Source of the DNA: a virus
Reading direction: 5' to 3' (one strand)
DNA: 64,000 nucleotides
Virus record (IMG/VR): IMGVR_UViG_3300032024_000295
Positions 557-62,103 of this stretch are shown piece after piece; positions within the stretch are counted from its first letter, which is position 1, and each line of letters begins with the position of its first letter. Position numbers and translations under genes: made by a program. The notes below the pieces were generated by a model that searched no databases, had not been told where the DNA came from, and saw nothing but the letters and a program-made list of their open reading frames with translations.

Positions 557-2095
557 CTACATCACTAAGAAAGGAATTGGCTCGTCATCGTTTTCTGCAC
601 TTCCGTCATTTTCAATGTAATCACTTTCTTCATATGCGTAAAGTTTCTTTCTTGCTCCGTCATCAAATTCAGATAGATGTTTTAGCAATCTCACTACGAG
701 TAGAAGAGATGAAATACTATCATCAGTTGCACCTGATTTAGCTGCATATGAGCCACCTGAAGAGATGAAGTTTTTCAATTCAAAGATATTGATATCAGAG
801 CGAAGTGTCATTCCATTCTTAACTTTCTCAATCAGTGATTTCAATTGCAAACATGCAATAACCTTATTGCGGTTTGTCGTGACCATACCGTATTTGTTTG
901 GCACATCATTAATCAACTCAGCATGCTCAGGTTGGTCATCATCAGTGTGGTATAGGGCCCCAAGGGCTTCGCCGACTCCATTTCGCTCAAAGGTCCAGAA
1001 GACTTCAGGTCGTCTATTGCCTTCGCCTTTTGATAGTTTGGCCAATACCCACTTAATCTTATCATACAATGAGGGGATATTCAGAGAGTTGGTCCTAAAC
1101 TCTGCAATCTGACACATCGACGGAAACTCAAACACTTCAATCACGCTAAAGTCTTTACCTGACCCCGTTGCAACGTCAACGCCCACAAGATAGATTGATG
1201 ATGTGCGTATCTCATCCCAAACCTTGAATCCTTGGTCTTCGAAAGATGGCATCATTGGCTTCAACTCAATTAATCGTTGAGAGCTAACAAGCAATGCGTC
1301 TGATGATAGGAATTCGCAGTCTAATTCCACTCTGACTTTCAATTCGCCAAGTTTTCCTAACATCTCTTCACGATATCCAGATTCAACCCCTCGCTCAGGA
1401 TGCTCAGTGTAGAGTGCAATGATATGAGCAAAGCTATTGATACCAGAAACAGACTCACGCCATAGTCGAGCGAATAGGTCAGTATCGCCATTAGGAGTAG
1501 TTGAAAGAATCAACTTACCACCAGTAGAAAGAGATGGCGCAATAGATGCCCAAATACCATCTTGGATACGTGGATTGATAAACGAAATCTCGTCTAACAT
1601 CAAAACTGAGGGTGAGCTACCTCGACCAGTCTTGTCAGTGGTTGCTTGTGATTTGATAACTGAATCATTATCAAACTCAATGGACGTACGATTGTAGAAT
1701 TTGCAACCAGGTTTTAGCCAGAATGGCAACTCCTCATATGCAAACTTGATTTTCGACATAATGTCTGTCGCATGGTCCATATTCTTGGACGCGATAACAC
1801 AGAATTTGTCTTCTTGGAATGCGGCCATCCAAAGGATATACATGGCTGCAGTTGTTGTTTTACCTAACTGACGAGAGCAGAGGACGAGTGAATCCTTGTT
1901 ATTATGGATGGTATCAACAATTCTTTCTTGATATTCGAAGAGGTCAAAAGACACAGTGCCTTTAGTAGGATGTTGAATCTTGACATAGTTTTTCATGAAA
2001 TAGATAGGGTCGTCTTGACACTTTTCTAATTCCATGAATTGCCAAGGCTCAAAACTATCTTGCGCATTAGCTCTTTTAATATACGGATTAGCCAT
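557..2095 (-). CDS. terL: Terminase large subunit (T4 gp17-like)
   Basis: Walker A SRQLGKTT, Walker B LMLDE, RNaseH nuclease motifs GVDVATGSGKDFS and DDSI, N-terminal CQDDPIYFMKNYVKI. Confidence 0.97.
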   Translation of the reverse strand: MANPYIKRANAQDSFEPWQFMELEKCQDDPIYFMKNYVKIQHPTKGTVSFDLFEYQERIVDTIHNNKDSLVLCSRQLGKTTTAAMYILWMAAFQEDKFCVIASKNMDHATDIMSKIKFAYEELPFWLKPGCKFYNRTSIEFDNDSVIKSQATTDKTGRGSSPSVLMLDEISFINPRIQDGIWASIAPSLSTGGKLILSTTPNGDTDLFARLWRESVSGINSFAHIIALYTEHPERGVESGYREEMLGKLGELKVRVELDCEFLSSDALLVSSQRLIELKPMMPSFEDQGFKVWDEIRTSSIYLVGVDVATGSGKDFSVIEVFEFPSMCQIAEFRTNSLNIPSLYDKIKWVLAKLSKGEGNRRPEVFWTFERNGVGEALGALYHTDDDQPEHAELINDVPNKYGMVTTNRNKVIACLQLKSLIEKVKNGMTLRSDINIFELKNFISSGGSYAAKSGATDDSISSLLLVVRLLKHLSEFDDGARKKLYAYEESDYIENDGSAENDDEPIPFLVM

Positions 2096-5194: not shown

Positions 5195-5739
5195 TTTGAT
5201 GTAATTCGCTTTCTAGTTGTGGTCGGCGCTTTAGGTTGTTTAATGCCTTTAGGTTTAGCAGCTGCTTTTACGGCTCTAGGTTTCTTAGGAGCCGTTGATT
5301 TAACTTTAGGCTTTTTAGGCGGAGCCATCTTATAGATATCCAACTCAGTGATAACCCTAAACTTCATATTATTTACAGCAGCAAACTTTCTAGCTGCATC
5401 CCATTTAGCTTCATTAATTGCAACATTCAACTTATCGTGAAGTGTTTTAGCGTGGTCATAGCTTGTTTCTTTCAGGGGCTTTACTTCTATCAACCACCTC
5501 TCTAATTCTTGTTGCGCATTTATCAATTCACAGAAGAAGTCAGGATAGTATCGATGGACTCGTCCATCTTTAGGTGAAATATAAGGCACAATTATGGTCT
5601 CCGACGCCCACCTCATGACGCTAGATGATTTATCAAAAAATTTCATCACTGTTAATTCCCAGCTCGACCTAAAAAATATTTCACTAGGATTGCCCATATA
5701 TTTCTGAGGATTAGTTGGGATAAATCTTCCTTTAGCCAT
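5191..5739 (-). CDS. Head completion nuclease (T4 gp4-like, TnsA-type PD-(D/E)XK)
   Basis: GRFIPTNPQKYMGNP..FRSSWE..WASE..PYISPKDGRVHRYYPDF..IEVKP. Confidence 0.93.
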   Translation of the reverse strand: MAKGRFIPTNPQKYMGNPSEIFFRSSWELTVMKFFDKSSSVMRWASETIIVPYISPKDGRVHRYYPDFFCELINAQQELERWLIEVKPLKETSYDHAKTLHDKLNVAINEAKWDAARKFAAVNNMKFRVITELDIYKMAPPKKPKVKSTAPKKPRAVKAAAKPKGIKQPKAPTTTRKRITSK

Positions 5740-43416: not shown

Positions 43417-43719
43417 TCAGGAATTAGAGTATTCACAGAATTCCATCAAAGTTTTTCGTTTAAAACGTGTAGCGATATCGCATAAGGAGCTACGGCCATC
43501 TAAAAAGACTGGCCGTAATTTGAAGAGCGGTATAACCCAAGAATAATCTCCTTTGGATACTATACCCGTCTGTTTGAATGTTTTACCATCGTGCTCAATA
43601 ATAAGGAGTTCTTTTGGTCCACGCCATTTTTCAAAATCAAATTCTACAAAAGCATAAATGCGTTTTGTATAATCTTGATAAATGTATTCGAAGATTTGTC
43701 TTTTATTCATCTTATTCAT
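43417..43719 (-). CDS. Hypothetical protein (start revised to exclude the tRNA)
   Basis: ORF-track start lies inside tRNA-Gln; MNKMNK begins at 43719. Confidence 0.45.
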   Translation of the reverse strand: MNKMNKRQIFEYIYQDYTKRIYAFVEFDFEKWRGPKELLIIEHDGKTFKQTGIVSKGDYSWVIPLFKLRPVFLDGRSSLCDIATRFKRKTLMEFCEYSNS

Positions 43720-43731
43720 CAAAGAGAGAAG

Positions 43732-43806
43732 TGGCGGGCACGGCTGGACTCGAACCCTCGTAATCGCGGTCAAAGCGCGATGCTACTACCTTTGGACGAC
43801 GTGCCT
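43732..43806 (-). tRNA. tRNA-Gln(UUG), degenerate D and T stems
   Basis: Anticodon arm TCGCG-CTTTGAC-CGCGA; acceptor pairs with a 1:72 mismatch; CCA encoded; T stem GAGGG/CCAGC mispaired. Confidence 0.65.
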
Positions 43807-43833
43807 ATATTTGATATGACACGTATAAGAAAT

Positions 43834-43907
43834 TGGAAGCGGAACTAGGAATCGAACCTAGATCGATGGGTTATGAACCCAACATGCTACCGTTAAAATA
43901 TCCCGCT
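43834..43907 (-). tRNA. tRNA-Met(CAU), initiator-like (GGG/CCC anticodon stem)
   Basis: CAT anticodon; CTAGG-TTCGATT-CCTAG T arm; A1:U72 pair; weak D stem; CCA. Confidence 0.75.
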
Positions 43908-43934
43908 TTTGAATTCGTAGATCACTTAATAATT

Positions 43935-44084
43935 CTAAACTAAAACTATTAAGTGATCTACGAACCTTTTTCCACAGTGTTTTTCTTTTCTCTTATACGT
44001 TACTTTTTTATCTTGTTCTACTTTCGGTTTGTTGAATTTACAACAATATTTTGCTACTAAATTCTGTTGTCGCTGGTTTTTCAT
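43935..44084 (-). CDS. Small basic phage protein (49 aa)
   Basis: MKNQRQQNLVAKYCCKFNKPKV..YKRKEKH; AGGAG SD. Confidence 0.55.
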   Translation of the reverse strand: MKNQRQQNLVAKYCCKFNKPKVEQDKKVTYKRKEKHCGKRFVDHLIVLV

Positions 44085-44114
44085 TTTACTTTCTCCTATT
44101 AGATTTCTTTTACA

Positions 44115-44474
44115 CTATTTATTTAACATTTCACGGGTTGAAATTTTACTGTTCCAATATTTTAATAATACATCTTTATTAAGTAAAACCCAATCATAGA
44201 TGTCATCTAATGAATTTTTACCTATTTTTTTAATAACATTTTCTTCTGTATCTCCAGCAACAACTCTCGGCTGAGCATCAATAGAAACTGAAAAGTTTTT
44301 ATTATCATCAAATCTAAGTGAGTTATCAAAATTCACTTTAATACTAGGACCAGCAGAATGTTTTTTAACTGAAACCCAAACGGTTTTATCTAAACCGGTG
44401 TCATGTTTTTGAAGATTAGACATTTCAAATAGATAGTCATCATCTTCTTCTCCAAACAGTTCATTAAGTTTCAT
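44115..44474 (-). CDS. Phage hypothetical (LFEMxNL..TGL family); paralog of 60510-60914
   Basis: MKLNELF..YLFEMSNL..DTGL..VWV..H..GPSIKV. Confidence 0.65.
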   Translation of the reverse strand: MKLNELFGEEDDDYLFEMSNLQKHDTGLDKTVWVSVKKHSAGPSIKVNFDNSLRFDDNKNFSVSIDAQPRVVAGDTEENVIKKIGKNSLDDIYDWVLLNKDVLLKYWNSKISTREMLNK

Positions 44475-44491
44475 TTGACTCTCTTCTTATT

Positions 44492-44566
44492 TGGACGTAC
44501 TGATGGGACTCAAACCCACATATAACGATTTTGCAGACCGCTTCATATTCATTCTGACACAGTACG
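44492..44566 (-). tRNA. tRNA-Cys(GCA)
   Basis: Acceptor CGTACTG/CAGTACG, U73, GCA anticodon, CCA. Confidence 0.85.
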
Positions 44567-44574
44567 AAAATCAT

Positions 44575-44650
44575 TGGAGCCCCGTGTCCGATTCGAACGG
44601 ACTACCTGCTCATTACAAGTGAGCTGCTCTACCAAGTGAGCTAACGGGGC
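44575..44650 (-). tRNA. tRNA-Thr(UGU)
   Basis: Canonical cloverleaf, all stems paired, CCA. Confidence 0.97.
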
Positions 44651-44667
44651 ATCATATACTTTATTTA

Positions 44668-44937
44668 TTAGATAGTGAAAGTCATTTCAGATAATGTGTG
44701 AGTTCGTTTCAGACTCTCACTAGCTTTTTCACTTTCACTATTTAACATTGATACTACTTCTAAAACATATTCATTTGAAAGTTGAATCGATTTCAATTCT
44801 TTCAATGATTCTAAATAGTCTTGGCTAGTGAAATAACTACTGCCTTCTAACTTACAACTATCAATCTTAACTTGTGGCCAAGTTGAGACTTCTCGTTGAG
44901 CTTCAGCTATTTGCTCGTTGAATGTTTTTCTGCTCAT
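44668..44937 (-). CDS. Hypothetical protein
   Basis: ORF between tRNAs. Confidence 0.5.
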   Translation of the reverse strand: MSRKTFNEQIAEAQREVSTWPQVKIDSCKLEGSSYFTSQDYLESLKELKSIQLSNEYVLEVVSMLNSESEKASESLKRTHTLSEMTFTI

Positions 44938-44960
44938 ATTGAAATCTCTTATTATTAAAC

Positions 44961-45035
44961 TGGCAGGCTAGTAGAGATTCAAACTCTAACCACACGGCTT
45001 TGGAGGCCGGTTTGCAATCGTAACACTTCTAACCT
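44961..45035 (-). tRNA. tRNA-Trp(CCA)
   Basis: Acceptor AGGTTAG/CTAGCCT, CGGC-CTCCAAA-GCCG, G73, CCA; TTTGAAT T loop. Confidence 0.85.
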
Positions 45036-45169
45036 AAATAAATCATAAGAATCATTAATGTTTCTTTTCTCTTAAGAAGAAACGTTTATATGTTATTGGA
45101 TCATCAACTATGTCAATACTGTTTAGTATTTTTGGTTCTAAGCTCATTTCATCTTCTCTATTATCAAAT

Positions 45170-45245
45170 TGGGGCGACTGGAGAGTTTCGATCTCTCTAC
45201 CTCCCGGTTCACAGCCGGGAATTCTCCCATTGAACTACAGTCGCC
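45170..45245 (-). tRNA. tRNA-His(GUG)
   Basis: G-1:C73 8-bp acceptor, CCCGG-CTGTGAA-CCGGG, CCA. Confidence 0.92.
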
Positions 45246-45253
45246 ATAAATCT

Positions 45254-45523
45254 TTATGAATCACTTCTTAAAAAACAAACATATGTTGCAGTTTGGTTAT
45301 ACGCATGAATGCTTCTTAGTTCAATACTAAGACCTTCGGTGCTAAAACCATCATTTCTTCTTGGAGCAGCTAATCCTAAATTACCATGCACTTGCTTTAT
45401 TTCTTCAAGAACTTTGATAAGTGCATCAATATTATATGCTCCAAATTCTGTCTGTTCTTCGTTTTCTTCTTTAAGAGTTGGAGTTGTAATTCCAGCAATT
45501 TTTTTCAGATGATTTAATTCCAT
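45254..45523 (-). CDS. Hypothetical protein, MELNHLKKIAG leader
   Basis: Start revised to 45523 because the ORF-track start runs through a tRNA-like element. Confidence 0.55.
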   Translation of the reverse strand: MELNHLKKIAGITTPTLKEENEEQTEFGAYNIDALIKVLEEIKQVHGNLGLAAPRRNDGFSTEGLSIELRSIHAYNQTATYVCFLRSDS

Positions 45524-45601
45524 AGCGTATAGTTCCTTAATTATTAGTGATAGGGTGTTTAAAAACTTATTTATCCCCTTATCACGCTTATCACGCTTAT
45601 T

Positions 45602-45685
45602 TGGCCTCCCTGCGAGGAGTTGAACCTCATGCCGTCCGCCCAATTCTAAGGATGGGTTTAGAAGACCCATATCGGGTTCAGGGAG
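45602..45685 (-). tRNA. D-armless tRNA-like RNA with UCU anticodon loop and long variable region
   Basis: Acceptor CTCCCTG/CAGGGAG, only 9 nt before TGGGT-CTTCTAA-ACCCA, 23-nt variable region, T arm, G73, CCA. Confidence 0.7.
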
Positions 45686-45889
45686 ATAATCACACACGTT
45701 TAAATCTTGGTTTTGTAACATTCGCTTTGTTGGACATACACTATAGCCTTCTGAATATCCCATCCGCAATTTATCAAAGCCTTCTTACATTCCATTACAC
45801 CTTCACCGGTCAATCGCCTTAGCTCTTGAACTATCTTATTCTGTTCTTGCGTAAATGTCATATGTAAATGCGTGTCTCATTATAGTGTG

Positions 45890-45958
45890 CGGCCCCTAGA
45901 AGAGTTGAACTTCTCCATCGGCGTTCGTAGCACCAAGTCCGAATCCGTCGGAGGGGCC
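45890..45958 (-). tRNA. tRNA-Arg(ACG), short atypical D arm, no encoded CCA
   Basis: Acceptor GGCCCCT/AGGGGCC, TTGGTG-CTACGAA-CGCCGA, AGAAG-TTCAACT-CTTCT. Confidence 0.7.
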
Positions 45959-46005
45959 TTAAATCAATTTTACTATCTCATCCATTATCCAAAACTATAC
46001 ACGCA

Positions 46006-46260
46006 TTAACTGGAATAAACTGTCAGTAAAACAAAGTCTTCACATTTACAGCAATATCCATCATCTCCGTAATCCTTTTTAAACTTTTTGAAGTAAGCCT
46101 CAAGCTTACTTTCGGCTTCTTCTACACTATTATATGGCCCTTCATCTAACATGTAATCATCATAATAAGGTCCATGAGATTCAATATCACGAAGCTCGCC
46201 ATTCTTTAACAATTTCCACAAATAACTTTTAGTCATAATATTCTCTACTGTTCGCAGCAA
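46006..46260 (-). CDS. Hypothetical protein
   Basis: ORF in the early operon. Confidence 0.45.
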   Translation of the reverse strand: MLRTVENIMTKSYLWKLLKNGELRDIESHGPYYDDYMLDEGPYNSVEEAESKLEAYFKKFKKDYGDDGYCCKCEDFVLLTVYSS

Positions 46261-46433
46261 TAAAGACCATAATCAACACCGTCACTATGTCCTTCACTAT
46301 ATGCTGCTTGCCGCCAGTCTTCCAATTGTTCCATTGTCAAACGAGCTGGTCTACATTGCAGCAGATAAAAAACTTGTTCAACTGTCAGGTTTTCAACTTC
46401 ACAATCTTGTCCATCAACATATACGGTAGTCAT
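46245..46433 (-). CDS. Hypothetical protein
   Basis: ORF directly after the promoter at 46472-46499. Confidence 0.45.
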   Translation of the reverse strand: MTTVYVDGQDCEVENLTVEQVFYLLQCRPARLTMEQLEDWRQAAYSEGHSDGVDYGLYCCEQ

Positions 46434-46471
46434 CTTTTCTCGCTCTCTTCCTGTTTATCAGCTATGGTTCT

Positions 46472-46522
46472 ATTATAACTTAATCTTCAAACTTGTACAT
46501 CATTGTTTTAGAACTAGTTAAC
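46472..46522 (-). promoter_or_regulatory. Early promoter TGTACA-16-TATAAT with GTTAAC box
   Basis: -10 at 46472-46477, -35 at 46494-46499, GTTAAC at 46517-46522. Confidence 0.65.
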
Positions 46523-46526
46523 AGTT

Positions 46527-46876
46527 TTACCAAGATACCATTATATCATAACGATATGCTTCTTCAGAAGGATTATCATAATCATCTAAACTGCCTAATC
46601 CACCACCTGGATTAAATGTAAAGTGTTTTACAGTAAACCCATACCCTTGATTTTTTAATTCTCTTTCCAGTCTCTTTTGAAACTCTGTCAAATCAGGTTT
46701 AAATTTATTATATCTTGGCTCTCCGCATTGAAACTTATCCCAGCTTCTGAAAGATTCAGAACACAAACACCTTTTTTGGCAGCTTCTTCAATCTTTTCGC
46801 CGGCTTTTTCAAGTAGAGCCTTAAATGCAGCATCACTTTCTTCGGCTATCTTTTTTGCTTCTCTGGCGGTAATCAT
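46527..46876 (-). CDS. Hypothetical protein(s); two overlapping ORFs (46688-46876 and 46527-46766), possibly one frameshifted gene
   Basis: ORF track; first ORF follows the promoter at 46908-46936. Confidence 0.35.
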
Positions 46877-55205: not shown

Positions 55206-56336
55206 CTAAAAGAAGAACTGCATATCGTTTTTGCGCATATAGTCGGTTATCCTGTTGATCCGTTCGGCTTTGATAGCCTCACCGATTGCTTTGCCTTTCA
55301 AGGTCGACCTTTGGTCTTCAGTCAAGGACTCGAAGCTAACGCTCAAGTACTCGAAGTGCAATCTCAACATCACCGACGGTTCGATAGCCAAGTTGGGGTG
55401 TATGATCTCAAACATAGCCTGAGCCTCCCACAACCGACCACCAGAGTAAGAGCCTTTAATCACATCAAACAACTCAACGATCGATCTGGCACTCGAACTA
55501 CCACAGGCAGTTCGAAACTCAAAAGCGTCTTTTGCCAACTGTTTGACTTCGTTTGGGATTTTCATCCTTTCGGAAATTTCGTCAATGGCTTCTTTACGAA
55601 CCGCCAACATCAGCAAGTAGGCCATCCGCTGAGTAGGTGATTCCAAATCGGTCAAGGTATTGATGACTGGAATAATAGCTCTAACTGAATGGCTCATTAT
55701 AGCTTCGTACAACTCTGGAAATACCACCTTCAATGCACCTGAATGTTTCAAACATGCGATGAATCTGAATGGATCGGCCTCAGACATTGCTTTAATGAAC
55801 TCCAAGTAGATGCGCTCTTTAGACAAGTGCTCCAATTCTTTCGCATCAACAATGTCTTTCATCAGCTCCATTGTTTCATCTGCGATTTTGAAGCCTTTAT
55901 AGCGAGCCACAAATCGAGCCACTCTCAGCACTCTCAATGGGTCTTCAGCGAAGGCGGTAGTTGTGTGTCTCAAGATACCCGCGCTCAAATCTGGATAACC
56001 ATTAAATGGGTCGATGATGTTGCCTTCATCATCCATAGCCATCGCATTGATGGTCAAATCCCGCCTCGACAAATCCTCTTTCAAGGTAACTGACACATCA
56101 AACTCGGTCTCAAAGCCATGATAGCCTGCAGCAACCTTACGTTCTCTGCGAGCCAATGCGTACTCTTCTCGAGTTTCAGGGTGCAAAAAAACGGGAAAGT
56201 CGGCGCCGACTTGAACGAAGCCATCAGCCAACATCTCTTCAGGAGTGGCACCTACGACAACATAGTCGATATCTTTAGCAACACGACCCAACAGTCTGTC
56301 CCTCACATATCCGCCACAAATAAAAATTTTTTTCAT
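55206..56336 (-). CDS. cca: CCA-adding tRNA nucleotidyltransferase (lacks an obvious HD motif)
   Basis: GGYVRDRLLG..DIDYVV, VGADFPVFLHP..EEYALARRERK, EDL.RRDLTINAMA, EDPLRVLRVARF. Confidence 0.95.
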   Translation of the reverse strand: MKKIFICGGYVRDRLLGRVAKDIDYVVVGATPEEMLADGFVQVGADFPVFLHPETREEYALARRERKVAAGYHGFETEFDVSVTLKEDLSRRDLTINAMAMDDEGNIIDPFNGYPDLSAGILRHTTTAFAEDPLRVLRVARFVARYKGFKIADETMELMKDIVDAKELEHLSKERIYLEFIKAMSEADPFRFIACLKHSGALKVVFPELYEAIMSHSVRAIIPVINTLTDLESPTQRMAYLLMLAVRKEAIDEISERMKIPNEVKQLAKDAFEFRTACGSSSARSIVELFDVIKGSYSGGRLWEAQAMFEIIHPNLAIEPSVMLRLHFEYLSVSFESLTEDQRSTLKGKAIGEAIKAERINRITDYMRKNDMQFFF

Positions 56337-56500
56337 CTTACTTAACTCCTAAAATCAGGGCAACATTCACTGATATCAACAGCGGTATCCAAATGATTGC
56401 ATCTTTCAGAATGGATTTTTGGATAGGCGTTAAGTTCAAGTACCATTGTTGGATTTTGGCGATCATCTGAAGTGCTCCTCACTCTCTTTAATATTGATCT

Positions 56501-56545
56501 ATCATATCATATTGGCAGTAAATGTACACTGCTAAAAGTGTTAAC
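56501..56545 (-). promoter_or_regulatory. Early promoter TGTACA-16-TATGAT with GTTAAC box
   Basis: -10 at 56501-56506, -35 at 56523-56528, box at 56540-56545. Confidence 0.6.
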
Positions 56546-56547
56546 TG

Positions 56548-56736
56548 CTACTCACTTTTGGTAAAGAAGCAGTCTGGGATAGTGGTGTTATCAACCTTCA
56601 ACTCTGCAACGTCTTCGTAATGACCTGAATACTGTTCGAGGGCTTCATCGATAGCGGCATTCCAGATAAACATCGCCTGATGTTTGCTTACGACTAAATT
56701 AGCCATATACTTCTCATACACTTCTTCAAACTTCAT
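56548..56736 (-). CDS. Hypothetical protein
   Basis: ORF track. Confidence 0.45.
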   Translation of the reverse strand: MKFEEVYEKYMANLVVSKHQAMFIWNAAIDEALEQYSGHYEDVAELKVDNTTIPDCFFTKSE

Positions 56737-56886
56737 CTAACCTTTCTCCTTATCTTACTCGCATTGAATCTAATCTTTGGCCATCTTCTATCGCCAGTAG
56801 CCCACATCATTATGGTGTCTTGACGTGTTAGGTTTAAGTGTATCAGACCAACAATAAACCAAAAGCCGATAAAGTTGATAGCCCCT

Positions 56887-57123
56887 CTAACTTCGCTCTT
56901 GATACAGTTTGCGAAGAAGGTCTTCATATCTCGGGCGAAGCCACTTGACTGGAAACTTGATATCATACACCTCAACCATCTTTGCGGTTGGATGTTTTGG
57001 GACTTGCTCATAGATGACATTTATCCAAGCGTCTTCATTTATCCACCAACCAATATTGATACACTCACGATGGACTTCAATACCGTTTGCATCATAGAAA
57101 ATTGTGCGTGATAGTAGGCTCAT
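56887..57123 (-). CDS. Hypothetical protein
   Basis: ATGA-coupled to the upstream gene. Confidence 0.45.
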   Translation of the reverse strand: MSLLSRTIFYDANGIEVHRECINIGWWINEDAWINVIYEQVPKHPTAKMVEVYDIKFPVKWLRPRYEDLLRKLYQERS

Positions 57124-57332
57124 TGGTCTTCACTCCAGTATTTGCCACATTCAGGGCATTTGTGCTCAATCCAATAGCAATCTGCCGAAGGGTCATAATT
57201 GCCAGTGTTGGATTTGTATTTTGAGGTCTTGTTGGTATGAGGACACGTCTCTTGAAGATAGTGTAACTCTTGCTATAAGGACGCTATCTTCTTCTGAAGT
57301 CGCGTCCTGATTTTGGCAATATCAATTTGCAT
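57120..57332 (-). CDS. Small Cys/His protein with in-frame TAG at 57273-57275
   Basis: MQIDIAKIRTRLQKKIASL*QELHYLQETCPH..SNTGNYDPSADCYW..CPECGKYW. Confidence 0.6.
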
Positions 57333-57696
57333 ACTTTTCATTCTCACTTATTAAATGGACATATACTTTCAATTCCTTCTTGTTGGCTCTCGTAATCATA
57401 TCCTTGGTGCCTCGACTATGACCATCCCAGATAGCAATCAGACCATCTGCATAACAAGCCATCTCTTCATTGCGAATAAAACCTGCAGCTTTTTGATATT
57501 TGTCCCAGTCAGCGGGAAACTTCTTAACGGGGATATCAAACTCTTTGCCTAACCTTTCACCAAGACGATCGACCCCTCTTGCATCGCCAGATACAATCTC
57601 AGTTATGTCAAAGTTAGCAAACAAAACAGCCTTACAGACAGTCTCATAGTTGGTTATTTCTCTACCACCCGCGATAATCACTTTCATTATCCTCAT
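57322..57696 (-). CDS. YspA-like SLOG family protein (DUF2493)
   Basis: VIIAGGR, IVSGDARGVD, ADWDKY..AAG.IRN, WDG.SRGT. Confidence 0.85.
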   Translation of the reverse strand: MRIMKVIIAGGREITNYETVCKAVLFANFDITEIVSGDARGVDRLGERLGKEFDIPVKKFPADWDKYQKAAGFIRNEEMACYADGLIAIWDGHSRGTKDMITRANKKELKVYVHLISENEKYAN

Positions 57697-57847
57697 TCTC
57701 TCTTATCAAAATCTTTAAGGTTTCAATACACTTTCTACAACCTGTCCCCGCTCGAGTCCTACGCATTATTTCCTCTAAAGTTAAGCCTTCCCATACTAAT
57801 TCGGCAATAACTTTATCAGATACATTTGCACATACACATACTATCAT
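57662..57847 (-). CDS. bfd: Bacterioferritin-associated ferredoxin-like [2Fe-2S] protein
   Basis: MIVCVCANVSD ... AGTGCRKC. Confidence 0.85.
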   Translation of the reverse strand: MIVCVCANVSDKVIAELVWEGLTLEEIMRRTRAGTGCRKCIETLKILIRENEDNESDYRGW

Positions 57848-57856
57848 ACACAGATA

Positions 57857-58432
57857 TTAAAACGGGCTAACTGAATGACCCAGGAGAGTGAAATTAGGAA
57901 TAGATGGTGGGACTATCATCTTATAATGGGTAGTGCCCTCAGTGACACAGGTCCTATATTCTTCACGTAATATCATCAGCAATTCACCTAGTATATTATG
58001 ACCGGTCACTGTTAATCCATCCTCACTTGGCTTGGCACCCCAAAAATCATCCTTCTTACTAAACTCTACAATCTCTCTATCCCCAGTTTCAAGTAGCACT
58101 TCGCCAAATGTCTTAGTATGATTTGCAAGTTTCAGTCGCAACACCCACATCATGATGTCCATCTTGACCTCTTCAAAGTCGGCTCTCGTGTAGGTGTTGC
58201 GATACTTCTTAGAAGCCATCTTGGCCCCCATACCACCGCCCGCTGACAAGATTTCCTTCTGGATATCAGGATATTCCGTAAATCTCATGGCTTGATACAA
58301 ACTTTCAGTAGAGCAAACCGGCTTTTCCATAATACGACATGACAACACTCGAAATGGAAAGCCTCCAGTCATATTGCCAAATTCACCCCATTTTTCTTTA
58401 GCCTTTGAGAAAAAGACACACATCACTAACAT
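57857..58432 (-). CDS. NADAR (YbiA/DUF1768) family protein
   Basis: ESLYQAMRF, IM..VLRLKL, LL.TGDREIVE.S..D.FWG, N.LG.LLM..RE. Confidence 0.85.
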   Translation of the reverse strand: MLVMCVFFSKAKEKWGEFGNMTGGFPFRVLSCRIMEKPVCSTESLYQAMRFTEYPDIQKEILSAGGGMGAKMASKKYRNTYTRADFEEVKMDIMMWVLRLKLANHTKTFGEVLLETGDREIVEFSKKDDFWGAKPSEDGLTVTGHNILGELLMILREEYRTCVTEGTTHYKMIVPPSIPNFTLLGHSVSPF

Positions 58433-58736
58433 TATAAGTATTCATACGATTTACTTCTTCTTTTAATTTATTTTATCATAGTTTTATGGAAAAGTAAACA
58501 GATATGCGAAGGGACCTTTAAAGGCCCCTTTTATGTTTTAAACAGGGTGATGTGATAGCTTATAGCATTGCGCCTAAGATTTCGGCCAGAAGCTCAAGGA
58601 CTCCTGCGAAGATTTCTGCGCCACCTTCAGTACGATGGCCTTTAGACAGACGGGATAGTCCAAAAATAATTAACACAACTGCAACAACTGCAAAAATAGT
58701 CAACTTCATATGGTGAAACCGTGAATCTTTGCGATA

Positions 58737-58943
58737 TTAATACCTATGATAAACACTGTGATTGTTACGATTATGTTGCGATATAATAAAAGGCATAGTA
58801 GGTGATACTGCACACATAATCAAACCTAAAAAGCCAAACCCTAATGATGCAAATTGCATATTCATCTCTATTCCTATTGTATAAAATTCGGGGACCTCAG
58901 TATTGAGCACTGTTAGTGTAGACGTCCGTGAGGTCCAATTCAT
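58737..58943 (-). CDS. Small membrane protein (start uncertain)
   Basis: Hydrophobic segment. Confidence 0.35.
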   Translation of the reverse strand: MNWTSRTSTLTVLNTEVPEFYTIGIEMNMQFASLGFGFLGLIMCAVSPTMPFIISQHNRNNHSVYHRY

Positions 58944-58946
58944 TAT

Positions 58947-59252
58947 TTATATTTCGTATACTCTACTGACTTTATCAGCAAACAGCCAGAGTGTATTATC
59001 GCCATTGATATGGTCGGGGCATTCCATAATAGAAAACTCATAGCAGTTTTCTTCATATTCAGGGTCAGCAAACGTGGCAGGTTTCATTTTCTTGATATAT
59101 CGGCCAGTTGGTTCTAAGATAAACACATTGGCTTTTTCTTCAAAGTGGTATGAAATGCCATATTCAATTCCTTGGTTCTTAGCAATATTAACTGTCATCG
59201 TATTATCTCTCTCTTCTGGTAGTTCAAGTTTATAAGTCATTGTATTTTTCAC
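58947..59252 (-). CDS. Hypothetical protein
   Basis: ORF in operon. Confidence 0.5.
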   Translation of the reverse strand: MKNTMTYKLELPEERDNTMTVNIAKNQGIEYGISYHFEEKANVFILEPTGRYIKKMKPATFADPEYEENCYEFSIMECPDHINGDNTLWLFADKVSRVYEI

Positions 59253-60021
59253 GCACTGAATTCAAATGCTCTTGGTCCATAACTTTACCGAAGGTGTTAA
59301 CTGCCAAGAAGGCAGCGTATTTTTCTTTTTCAGTAGAATCTTCTGACATGATACCCAATGAGATGCCATATTGATCGAAATGGATTCGGTCACGAAAAGA
59401 AAGTTGAGAGTAGTAAACACCTTTGTAAGGGAAGCGGTCTTCGTAGAATTCAACCAATGCAGTTAGACGTTGTTTACCATCGATAACTTCGTACATTTTA
59501 CTATATGCTTCGAAAGGGCGTTTTGCCAATACGAACAAACCGATGGTGATGTTGTTGAAGATCGAATCGATCAATTTTTCTTTATCTTCTTGAGACCAAA
59601 CGTAATCACGTTGATACTCAGGAGAAAAGTCAACACCTGCATAATCATACAGGACGATTGAAAGCAGACCATCAATATCGCGGTTTGATTGGCTCATACG
59701 ATATGCAATAGGCACAGTGAAAGAAGTTTCTACACGTGAGTTCAGTTTTTCCAGTTGATGCCAGCAAACGATTTGCTCTTGAGAGTATTCAGTTGGTGTT
59801 CCATAGCTGTTTTTGGTGCCAAAAACATGAACTTTGTAAGCAACACCATCATCGTAGACTTCCAAGATTTCAGTGTTACAGTGGTTGCCATAGCGAACTG
59901 CTTCGCCAACTTCAAAAGTACGAGTAGGTTTGAAACCATCGCGAACTCGCCAATCTTTATCAGAACGTGGATTATATACGATAGGTGCGGGACTTCTACT
60001 TTTTTTTGCTTTAGCAGCCAT
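59230..60021 (-). CDS. DUF262 (ParB/GmrS-like) domain protein
   Basis: PEYQRDYVWS..LIDSI..YEVIDGKQRLT. Confidence 0.85.
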   Translation of the reverse strand: MAAKAKKSRSPAPIVYNPRSDKDWRVRDGFKPTRTFEVGEAVRYGNHCNTEILEVYDDGVAYKVHVFGTKNSYGTPTEYSQEQIVCWHQLEKLNSRVETSFTVPIAYRMSQSNRDIDGLLSIVLYDYAGVDFSPEYQRDYVWSQEDKEKLIDSIFNNITIGLFVLAKRPFEAYSKMYEVIDGKQRLTALVEFYEDRFPYKGVYYSQLSFRDRIHFDQYGISLGIMSEDSTEKEKYAAFLAVNTFGKVMDQEHLNSVREKYNDL

Positions 60022-60057
60022 TATCTTTCTCCATAGCTTTCTTCAGAATATGAAACA

Positions 60058-60108
60058 ATTATAAACTGTTTTCCGTGAAAGTAAACAACTATAAGTGTTA
60101 AGCGCTTA
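60058..60108 (-). promoter_or_regulatory. Early promoter TTTACT-16-TATAAT with upstream palindrome GTGTTAAGCGCTTAACAC
   Basis: -10 at 60058-60063, -35 at 60080-60085. Confidence 0.6.
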
Positions 60109-60147
60109 ACACTTTCTCGCTAGCATATTCTTCAATTAGCAAATTTG

Positions 60148-60225
60148 CTCTGCCTGAGAGACTCGAACTCCCCTATACCGACTGGCCAGTCGGTAACTGT
60201 TGACCCTGTAGCTATTACAGGCAGA
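60148..60225 (-). tRNA. Atypical tRNA-like element (8-bp acceptor, 4-bp T stem); anticodon unassignable
   Basis: TCTGCCTG/CAGGCAGA, GGAG-TTCGAGT-CTCT, palindromic arm TACCGACT-GGCC-AGTCGGTA. Confidence 0.5.
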
Positions 60226-60232
60226 ATAAAAT

Positions 60233-60321
60233 TGAAGCGGCAAGTGGGAATCGAACCAAAGACCCGTCGGTCTCACTCCGCTCGGTTAGGTGCCGAGCGC
60301 ATCGCCTAGTGCTTTCGCCGC
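60233..60321 (-). tRNA. Atypical tRNA with CCU anticodon and long variable arm
   Basis: CTCGG-CACCTAA-CCGAG, CGG/CCG variable stem, GCGGCGA/TTGCCGC acceptor, mispaired T stem. Confidence 0.55.
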
Positions 60322-60509
60322 ATAGTTTATTCTTCAATTGGGAAAAAGGACTCACATGGTTCGTTATTATCTCTGCAAATGTGACAACAATACCAGACTT
60401 CCCACGTATCACCGCCAACATTTACTTCTTCCCAATGGCCTGTACCGGACTCAGGATGGTTAGTACCTTTGAACGGCGTATCGCAATGAGTACAATAAAG
60501 AGCCATATT

Positions 60510-60914
60510 CTACACCTTTTGAAGTCTATCAAAAACGTCATCCATTGATAATACTTCACCGGTATCTTCATCTTTAACGTGAGACGCATTACGTTCAAAC
60601 ATCCACCACAGCAACATTAAATCATCATAATTTGATATAATCCACTTTTTAACTTGTTTCACATCATCATTTGGTATTTTAACTGCGTCAGGGTTTGACA
60701 TTAGTTTTGGGTCTTTGTTATCAATAGATAAAACAAAATAATTAGTTTCTCTCCATCGTCCTTTTATGTTAGACACCTTAACTCGTGGACCATGTTGTCC
60801 ACCAATTCTACCAATCCAGATAACATACTCTAACCCAGTTTCATTAGGACGAAGATTAGCCATTTCAAATAGCGGATAATTGTCAACGTCTGTACAAATT
60901 TCTGTAAGTTTCAT
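60510..60914 (-). CDS. Phage hypothetical (LFEMANL..TGL family), MKLTEIC leader
   Basis: Start revised to 60914 (the ORF-track start lies in tRNA-Gly); paralog of 44115-44474. Confidence 0.65.
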   Translation of the reverse strand: MKLTEICTDVDNYPLFEMANLRPNETGLEYVIWIGRIGGQHGPRVKVSNIKGRWRETNYFVLSIDNKDPKLMSNPDAVKIPNDDVKQVKKWIISNYDDLMLLWWMFERNASHVKDEDTGEVLSMDDVFDRLQKV

Positions 60915-60929
60915 GGTACTGTGAATGAG

Positions 60930-61005
60930 TGGAGCAGGTGACAAGCTTCGAACTTGCAACATCCGACTTGGAAGGACGACGCTCTACCAACTAAGCTATG
61001 GCGGC
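60930..61005 (-). tRNA. Chimeric tRNA-Gly(UCC)
   Basis: D arm, T arm, TCC loop, U73 and CCA intact; acceptor GCCGCCA/CACCTGC has 4 mismatches. Confidence 0.6.
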
Positions 61006-61006
61006 A

Positions 61007-61219
61007 TTATTTTCTTAAATTCTTTTCACCCAATACAATCATTCCAACAAACAGTATTAGAAATATTCCAAACAATCCAACACCTATGAAATCTTGATGC
61101 TGCTTTTCAGCTATCTGTTCAGAAGTTAATGCTGGTTGTTCAGTACTTGTAGTTGTACTATCATCAAGTACTGCTCCCCAATACATCATACTTTGTGCAT
61201 TCGAAAAATCAACTGGCAT
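61007..61219 (-). CDS. Small membrane protein
   Basis: C-terminal TM helix. Confidence 0.5.
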   Translation of the reverse strand: MPVDFSNAQSMMYWGAVLDDSTTTSTEQPALTSEQIAEKQHQDFIGVGLFGIFLILFVGMIVLGEKNLRK

Positions 61220-62027
61220 TGTATTTTTTATCCCATTTTTGTATTCGTTCTAAAAGCTCTTCTAGAGCAATAGAGTTCTTTAAGCCTTTAGACATATTGT
61301 CATTGTGTCGAACTAATCTGCAATTAGCTGGATGAGCTAAGATGTTAGGATCAATTACGTTTTCATGACCATATTTTACACTTACCATATGATCACGACT
61401 AACACCATTCAAATTATTCCCGGCATTAGAAAGATTATACCAACCAATTTCATTTACTAAAGATAAATCAAATTCTTCTGGATAATCTTCACATGTAAAT
61501 CTAAATGCAGCTAATATTCGATATTTTGATATGTTATCTGCTTTTGCTAATTTATAATCATTTTTGCATTTATCACGACAAAACTTTTTAAGCTTAGCAT
61601 TTTTTCCTATTAACTGTGTCTGAAATTCTTTACTGCAATAAATGCACTTTTCGGTCTCATATCTAATATGAGCAAATACCCGTCCTTTTAATGCGATTGA
61701 TTTTTTCTTACGTGTTTCTTCAGAATCCTTTTTATTTTTATTAGAATATGAAGCTGAACACGAACTATTGCAAAACTTACCATTACGTTTATCAAATGCT
61801 AAAATAGCATTGCAGCACAAACACCGTTTAGGATTAAGAAGATATTTTTGTTCTTTATTAAACTTCTTATCCTGTTTAGTTTTTGCTACTTTATCATAGC
61901 TTCCATTGTTACCCTGACAATACTGTGTTTTTCCTAAGTGTGCTCTATCAACATGAGTAAAAATGCCTTTGACACTTTTGACTTCATGACAATAAATGCA
62001 ACTACATAAATTACTAGGCTGTTTCAT
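61209..62027 (-). CDS. HNH homing endonuclease
   Basis: Multiple CxxC; RDHMVS..HPANC.LV.HNDN.SK; TATAAATA at 62055-62062. Confidence 0.75.
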   Translation of the reverse strand: MKQPSNLCSCIYCHEVKSVKGIFTHVDRAHLGKTQYCQGNNGSYDKVAKTKQDKKFNKEQKYLLNPKRCLCCNAILAFDKRNGKFCNSSCSASYSNKNKKDSEETRKKKSIALKGRVFAHIRYETEKCIYCSKEFQTQLIGKNAKLKKFCRDKCKNDYKLAKADNISKYRILAAFRFTCEDYPEEFDLSLVNEIGWYNLSNAGNNLNGVSRDHMVSVKYGHENVIDPNILAHPANCRLVRHNDNMSKGLKNSIALEELLERIQKWDKKYNAS

Positions 62028-62103
62028 AATACTCCAAAAATAAACTTTACATTCTATTTATAGATTTGGTGGATAAATCTATTTTCGAACCTAAGTACAT
62101 TTT

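Follow-up and report, generated by a model that had tools for sequence, protein, structure and literature searches.

Hybrid Genes within a tRNA Array: Probable Scars of Recombination at Shared tRNA Motifs in an Uncultured T4-like Jumbo Phage

Introduction

The SegB nuclease of phage T4 recognizes a T-loop motif and cuts after the CCA (PMC2330249), and SegB of T6, which cleaves within tRNA genes, promotes an amplification of the tRNA region that depends on UvsX/Y (PMC13096335). Recombination in T4 can also proceed via microhomology of 6–10 bp (PMC9391042), and in plastomes, recombination between different tRNA genes leaves chimeric pseudogenes (PMC12371153). Here we analyze broken tRNA genes in a 64,000-nucleotide stretch of viral DNA (IMG/VR record IMGVR_UViG_3300032024_000295, hereafter the window), which derives from an uncultured T4-like jumbo phage. 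The hybrids among these genes are probably dead, non-functional scars of T4-type recombination within a jumbo-phage tRNA array.

Several described systems resemble this locus in part. As with SegB of T4 and T6 (PMC2330249 and PMC13096335), a free-standing nuclease gene resides in a T4-like tRNA array and appears to move with flanking tRNA genes, and the core motif of SegB is the T-loop motif found at the joint of one hybrid, the second tRNA-Phe gene (Phe2). The nuclease beside Phe2, however, is DUF559/Vsr-like rather than of the GIY-YIG type. A keyword search of the T6 paper returned no chimeric or hybrid tRNA; the junction described there joins a tRNA to segB. Amplification and deletion through microhomology in T4 (PMC9391042) likewise involve joints at short shared sequences and the gain or loss of gene blocks, but the T4 repeats are 6–10 bp long and flank dmd-tifA within one genome, whereas those of the window are universal tRNA motifs in diverged alleles. 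A chimeric tRNA pseudogene in the rice plastome (Hiratsuka 1989, as cited in PMC12371153) shows that tRNA–tRNA recombination can leave a hybrid at the breakpoint, although it stems from a single organelle inversion, in contrast to several events in a phage array with nuclease cassettes. The attR-type tRNA fragments of islands and prophages also place a displaced tRNA 3′ end downstream of incoming DNA; the block in the window differs in that it has no integrase, its upstream gene was wholly replaced rather than regenerated, and the tail is fused to another tRNA. A literature search, with most subscription journals outside its coverage, returned no account of hybrid tRNA genes in phage arrays. 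We regard the window as a clear case of a known process, every step of which has precedent.

Results

Setting and Comparisons

The terminase of the window (557–2095) is 42% identical to that of Ralstonia phage RsoM2USA and 38% identical to that of XacN1. The minus strand carries about 20 genes for tRNAs and tRNA-like RNAs between 43.7 and 64 kb, with small genes between them. They were assessed with Rfam scores and ARAGORN; a gene was counted as broken if it had at least two mismatches in acceptor pairs 2–7 or in the T stem. The relatives used for comparison (designated by letter and number below) are 70–80% identical at the DNA level. One of them, G001, was reached via its terminase, independently of tRNA sequence, whereas the intact Phe(GAA) parent, L071, was obtained by pattern search. 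Scans of viral contigs with a 208-aa protein, DUF932, and the CCA-adding enzyme recovered no relatives, and a metagenome scan returned mostly unrelated CCA enzymes.

The Broken Stems Are Real

A preliminary description, made from the sequence alone, had pointed to five genes with broken stems: Gly, Phe2, Met2, Gln, and a gene with a CCU anticodon. All five were confirmed: they lie on the minus strand within the described interval (43732–61005), and their stems are broken. Rfam scores for Gly, Phe2, and Gln are 38, 29.5, and 28.8 bits, compared to 60–72 for intact neighbors. ARAGORN misses Gly and Met2, the latter being missed by Rfam too, and calls Phe2, Gln, CCU, and the tRNA-Ile as genes. 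None of Gly, Phe2, Met2, and Gln forms a cloverleaf in RNAfold. By the fixed rule, 4 of 12 parsed genes in the window are broken versus 5 of 91 in G001, L147, L019, RsoM2USA, and XacN1 (Fisher p = 0.01), a comparison biased by the choice of the window for its broken tRNAs and by the removal of false-positive rows by hand.

Logan unitigs (contigs only, depth 6–7) from a cave/biofilm run, which is probably the source sample and not a second isolate, cover positions 43500–44961, 44956–48953, 49000–51199, and 59998–61451 with 0 differing letters. Each of the five genes is bridged letter for letter by single unitigs of 1.5–4 kb, among which no fully paired alternative alleles of these genes were found. 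The motifs common to the joint sites measure 11 and about 19 nt, below the usual assembly word size. Because the unitigs bridge the genes without differences and the shared motifs are shorter than assembly words, a misjoin is excluded. Three relatives show synteny with the flanking regions. The breaks in the stems are genuine and no assembly error. Two further sequencing runs matched the window only through tRNAs of other organisms.

Phe2 Joins a Phe Body to a Lys Tail beside a Nuclease Gene

The following features define the locus around Phe2.

47364..47439, minus strand: Phe2, a hybrid and probable pseudogene consisting, by comparison with parent genes, of tRNA-Phe(GAA) nt 1–53 and tRNA-Lys(UUU) nt 61–76.
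47378..47388, minus strand: the Phe2 junction, an 11-nt T-loop motif that is also the core of the T4 SegB site (PMC2330249).
47441..48091, minus strand: putative free-standing homing endonuclease gene, DUF559/Vsr-like with a weak NUMOD3, abutting Phe2 (Pfam PF04480, E = 3e-9).
48106..48183, minus strand: intact donor-type tRNA-Lys(UUU), here Lys′, the putative upstream end of an incoming block (76/78 identical to the Lys of L147).
47114..47189, minus strand: intact resident tRNA-Phe(GAA), here Phe1, which by sequence comparison belongs to the allele family of the Phe that follows Lys in G001.

Nucleotides 1–53 of Phe2 are identical at 47 of 53 positions to the intact Phe(GAA) of L071, and nt 61–72 match the intact, syntenic Lys(UUU) of G001 at 12 of 12. 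Sites that distinguish the parents favor Phe by 30:1 to the left of the T loop and Lys by 7:0 to its right (p = 6e-7). Among all fetched loci, the 3′ 16-mer of Phe2 occurs only in the G001-type Lys. These data support well the view that Phe2 is a cross-isoacceptor hybrid produced by motif-anchored recombination. The anticodon stem of Phe2 carries an additional U·U pair that is absent from its family.

The gene order in the window is Lys′, the DUF559 nuclease, Phe2, a 53-aa open reading frame (ORF), and Phe1. Homologs of the nuclease are annotated as homing endonucleases. The closest of them (74%, in L147) is preceded by a Lys 76/78 identical to Lys′ and is followed by His and then Phe; the next (65%, in L148) lies directly against an intact Phe, and its stop codon meets the tRNA gene just as it does in the window. 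Both links, Lys′ to nuclease and nuclease to Phe, were therefore found with intact tRNAs, on different contigs, while the block is absent from the corresponding site in G001; the nuclease gene moves with its flanking tRNA genes. Window and G001 share the sequence before Lys and continue to the same Phe allele, and Lys′ is donor-type over its entire length and unlike the Lys of G001. The cargo of the block is 650 nt long and contains the nuclease gene but no integrase. From these alignments, the window reads as a G001-like genome that was entered by a Lys′–nuclease–Phe block, with crossovers upstream of Lys and in the T loop.

A non-coding stretch upstream of Lys (48170–48383) is kept in G001, L147, and L148 and is probably an unannotated RNA.

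Gly Carries a Thr- or Val-Type Acceptor Strand

Four features lie at the Gly end of the array.

60930..61005, minus strand: Gly hybrid, a tRNA-Gly(UCC) body whose 5′ acceptor strand is of Thr or Val type; the joint falls within nt 8–34 (about 60998–60972).
61209..62027, minus strand: HNH-like putative homing endonuclease gene where G001 has tRNA-Gly, placed by synteny; its feature neighbors are HNH clusters at 0.83–0.90 (Atlas), a lead only.
62067..62093, minus strand: tRNA 3′ stub, by its sequence T loop to CCA, in front of the HNH-like gene.
60510..60914, minus strand: gene of 134 aa following the Gly hybrid; in relatives it occurs in several distinct settings.

The acceptor strands of Gly do not match, as had been described: the 5′ strand pairs at only 3 of 7 positions. 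Its first 25 nt match tRNA-Thr in 52 of 60 genome hits and Gly in none, and the 5′ half is 82% identical to the Val(UAC) of G001, which has an identical anticodon stem; the front is therefore attributed to Thr or Val. From the D arm onward the gene matches the Gly(UCC) of Cronobacter phage S13, including a U·U pair in the anticodon stem. Since S13 has the same pair, the anticodon mismatch, which had been read as a second break, is natural rather than a joint, and a crossover in the anticodon loop was rejected. The alignments give reasonable support to Gly as a second cross-isoacceptor hybrid formed by motif-anchored recombination, less sharply than for Phe2. An origin of Gly in a host Thr-Tyr-Gly-Thr operon was not supported; in the one Acinetobacter record the order fits and the sequences differ.

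In G001, Gly directly follows Ala. The window has at this position the 3′ stub and the HNH-like gene, whose product gave no match in Pfam; one more gene separates this position from the hybrid. The 134-aa gene has homologs at loci without a called tRNA (L018, L022, and L023) or without a tRNA directly upstream (L016), so tRNA loops would be one type of anchor and not a required one. The 134-aa gene has a paralog of 30% identity at 44115–44474 (both minus strand); the two small genes have MKLxE-like starts, and their homologs stand in many contexts.

Met2, Gln, CCU, and Ile Show Other Kinds of Damage

49695..49772, minus strand: Met2 (CAU), with broken stems that reflect either local lesions in a single gene or the fusion of tandem Met paralogs.
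43732..43806, minus strand: tRNA-Gln(UUG) with broken D and T stems and a possible internal patch (43756–43787) from another Gln lineage.
60233..60321, minus strand: tRNA-like gene with a CCU anticodon, A33, and a TCA end, its T stem probably interrupted by a 16-nt hairpin (60258–60273).
51179..51268, minus strand: tRNA-Ile(GAU) with a 15-nt, stutter-like insertion (about 51190–51204) between T arm and acceptor, identified from the sequence and bridged by no listed unitig.

Comparison with KVP40 and GP100 had suggested pure decay of Met2; a fusion was reconsidered because of L147, which has two tandem Met(CAU) paralogs (MetA and MetB) at this position. The 5′ strand of Met2 pairs 7/7 with the 3′ strand of MetA, an extra T-stem base is common to both, and the D arm and 3′ end match MetB; on this evidence, paralog fusion and local damage are both possible. 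For Met2, in contrast to Gly, a crossover in the anticodon loop is also conceivable. Gln matches the Gln of G001 at both ends and resembles an S72-type Gln in the middle, and its A1·C72 pair, also present in L147, is natural. One internal patch could explain both broken stems, as could 4–5 point lesions. Met2 and Gln, which resemble same-anticodon genes on both sides, would be at most same-anticodon mosaics, probably from the same process as Phe2.

Removal of the 16 nt from the CCU gene leaves a 73-nt body with a 4-nt variable loop and a perfect T stem, a fit that by our estimate would arise by chance in about 2–5% of cases. This makes the gene a likely hairpin insertion and not a hybrid; no full-length relative was found in searches that included the fetched loci. 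CCU and Ile appear to be local insertions.

The preliminary description had treated the broken genes as chimeras of different isoacceptors, joined at tRNA loops that exchange the cassettes between them. In identifying a real feature and the right type of process it is partly supported, but it merged three types of lesion: the five genes comprise two cross-isoacceptor hybrids (Phe2 and Gly), two possible same-anticodon mosaics (Met2 and Gln), and one insertion (CCU). Recombination at tRNA motifs holds well for Phe2 and reasonably for Gly, is possible for Met2 and Gln, and finds no support in CCU. Nor is each tRNA followed by an ORF or homing endonuclease gene, as had been proposed: CCU is followed by another tRNA-like gene.

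Similar Hybrids, Stubs, and Nuclease Genes Occur in the Clade

Damage of similar kinds is present in relatives. A stub in G001 combines the 5′ end of a window-type Thr with the 3′ end of a Met2-type gene; in L147, a Val body whose acceptor strands do not pair occupies the position of the window's Thr; G005 contains a 3′ stub and a Leu whose 3′ strand is foreign; and in L148 a hairpin interrupts the anticodon loop of one tRNA. Further loci were mapped as follows.

L025 10272–10325 (minus strand); L147 5036–5111; L156 6306–6385 and about 5340–5375 (minus strand); L148 488–618: further hybrids, 3′ stubs, and a hairpin insertion in uncultured relatives.

The genes that are hit differ between lineages, and no second copy of any window hybrid was found in the collections searched, which contained no close strain. 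Among the cultured phages RsoM2USA and XacN1, 3 of 61 genes have two mismatches, and no comparable hybrids occur in the stretches read. Each close relative has a nuclease gene directly after a tRNA: SegE/GIY-YIG in L147 (after Gln), HNH in L016, and T5orf172 in G001.

Discussion

A Model for the Formation of the Hybrids

The hybrid structure, the joint positions, and the linkage of nuclease to tRNA genes are evident from the comparisons, with the switch points lying within sequence shared by the parents, in the T loop for Phe2 and between D arm and anticodon for Gly. We consider it likely that the hybrids arose by T4-type recombination and are now dead. The comparisons show that the Lys′–nuclease–Phe block replaced the resident Lys. 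The upstream crossover used the shared sequence before Lys and the downstream crossover the 11-nt T-loop motif common to the donor Phe and the resident Lys. The outcome was a new Lys that is intact, followed by the nuclease gene and, before the resident Phe, a Phe/Lys hybrid that is probably dead. Gly probably formed in the same way, through a shared D arm. These events may have occurred during co-infection, by recombination-dependent replication: a broken end, trimmed to a D arm or T loop, could prime replication after invading a non-allelic tRNA gene in the genome of a co-infecting relative. Homing nucleases cutting at tRNA genes would supply many of the breaks, and by analogy with SegB they probably stimulate the recombination. 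The scars would persist because of their low cost, and intact genes in the window still cover both Lys and Phe.

Escape from a SegB-type nuclease was rejected as the cause of the lesions, since the core motif and CCA are still present in Phe2, Met2, and Gln.

Several points weigh against this model. The sequence support, at depth 6–7, probably derives entirely from one sample. Both parent types of Phe2 and both links of the block were recovered from relatives, but the actual parental genomes were not, the relatives standing at 70–80% DNA identity. No homolog of the 53-aa ORF that follows Phe2 occurs behind Lys in G001, which leaves the Phe1 allele as the only tie between the right flank and the recipient. 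No SegB-type gene was seen in the window; the two nucleases examined are of DUF559 type and HNH-like. Finally, simple decay fits Met2 and Gln nearly as well.

Alternative Explanations

Plain decay, in which point mutations and small indels accumulate in dispensable tRNAs and likeness to two parents is due to chance, is probably true for some copies and is unlikely as the explanation of the hybrids. Met1 and Trp have D-arm damage only, Ile and CCU are accounted for by local insertions, and Met2 and Gln need only 4–5 lesions. Decay cannot, however, yield the 12/12 match of Phe2 to the syntenic Lys or the switch from 30:1 to 0:7 at informative sites, which refutes it for this gene, and the four acceptor mismatches of Gly produce a 5′ end typical of Thr.

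A broader proposal is that tRNA-targeting nucleases and recombination at D and T motifs form a standing tRNA-shuffling engine in this clade, with some products (the patched Gln, the Thr/Gly hybrid, and the hairpin CCU) expressed and kept as decoys or as tRNAs with new anticodon arms; we consider this rather improbable. It is likewise doubtful that the phage retains the hybrids to act as decoys for host anticodon nucleases, as altered substrates of these enzymes, or as tRNAs with a new identity. Phage tRNAs can counter tRNA-cleaving defenses (PMC13096335; PMC12409363), and Gly, Gln, Phe2, and Met2 all point the same way within the array and retain a 7-nt anticodon loop and CCA. The preservation of loops and 3′ ends noted in the preliminary description holds for these four genes and fails for CCU, but retained loops follow automatically from tRNA–tRNA recombination. 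No support for decoys was found: Phe2 has its extra U·U anticodon-stem pair, CCU has lost U33, the four genes lack a predicted cloverleaf, and relatives carry different hybrids at different genes with no second copy found.

Insertion of an integrase-type element at the T loop of Lys, with the displaced 3′ end left as an attR-like scar, is very unlikely. The arrangement of an intact Lys, cargo, and a displaced Lys tail has the geometry generally known for tRNA-integrated elements, but the upstream Lys is donor-type throughout (76/78 to L147, unlike the G001 Lys) and does not combine the 5′ half of the resident gene with a newly acquired tail, which largely refutes this explanation, and the 650-nt cargo holds a nuclease gene without an integrase. 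Misassembly or strain mixing that joined contigs at tRNA genes, offered earlier and allowed for by a metagenomic source of low depth whose supporting runs are probably the source data and one data set, is hardly credible given single unitigs across each named gene, no alternative alleles listed there, and syntenic flanks.

Implications

As a natural genome, the window would illustrate the turnover of phage tRNA arrays, with universal tRNA motifs acting as portable homology through which nuclease cassettes and small genes can enter without long flanking homology. It would link laboratory results on SegB and on T4 microhomology to natural variation in a different clade. More practically, tRNA finders call hybrids as genes, which inflates the phage tRNA counts used in arguments on codon usage and anti-defense functions.

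Additional Features of the Array

Several other tRNA-like genes of the window are unusual. Met1 (43834–43907) and Trp (44961–45035), both on the minus strand, have intact acceptor and T stems and damaged D arms; an inverted repeat upstream of Met1 (43914–43964) has a counterpart just upstream of Met in L147. At the position of a normal Arg(UCU) in L147, the window has a UCU tRNA-like gene (45602–45685, minus strand) whose acceptor and T stems are intact but whose D arm is nearly absent and whose variable region measures 23 nt, and another tRNA-like gene (60143–60225, minus strand) has an 8-nt palindromic anticodon loop (GGCC) between intact outer stems. Neither has a full-length relative among the fetched loci. 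Two structured RNAs with tRNA-like ends or a T arm (46963–47108 and 49990–50088, minus strand) are reminiscent of the species I and II RNAs of T4.

In four phages, Asn genes (in one case Met) without CCA lie inside longer inverted repeats that extend the acceptor stem.

Window 49880–49985; L016 10495–10600; L025 11230–11335; L147 5905–6000: CCA-less tRNA in an extended inverted repeat.

The window encodes a CCA-adding enzyme (55206–56336). A 53-aa ORF between two Arg-type tRNA genes (45700–45861, minus strand) shows a resemblance, below the Pfam cut-off (E = 1e-4), to elongation factor Ts in its N-terminal domain. At 56733–57123 (minus strand), two ORFs are separated by an in-frame TAG, the first matching the start of a 214-aa gene in L016; the letters were confirmed by unitigs, and readthrough of the TAG is conceivable, as XacN1 has CUA suppressor tRNAs.

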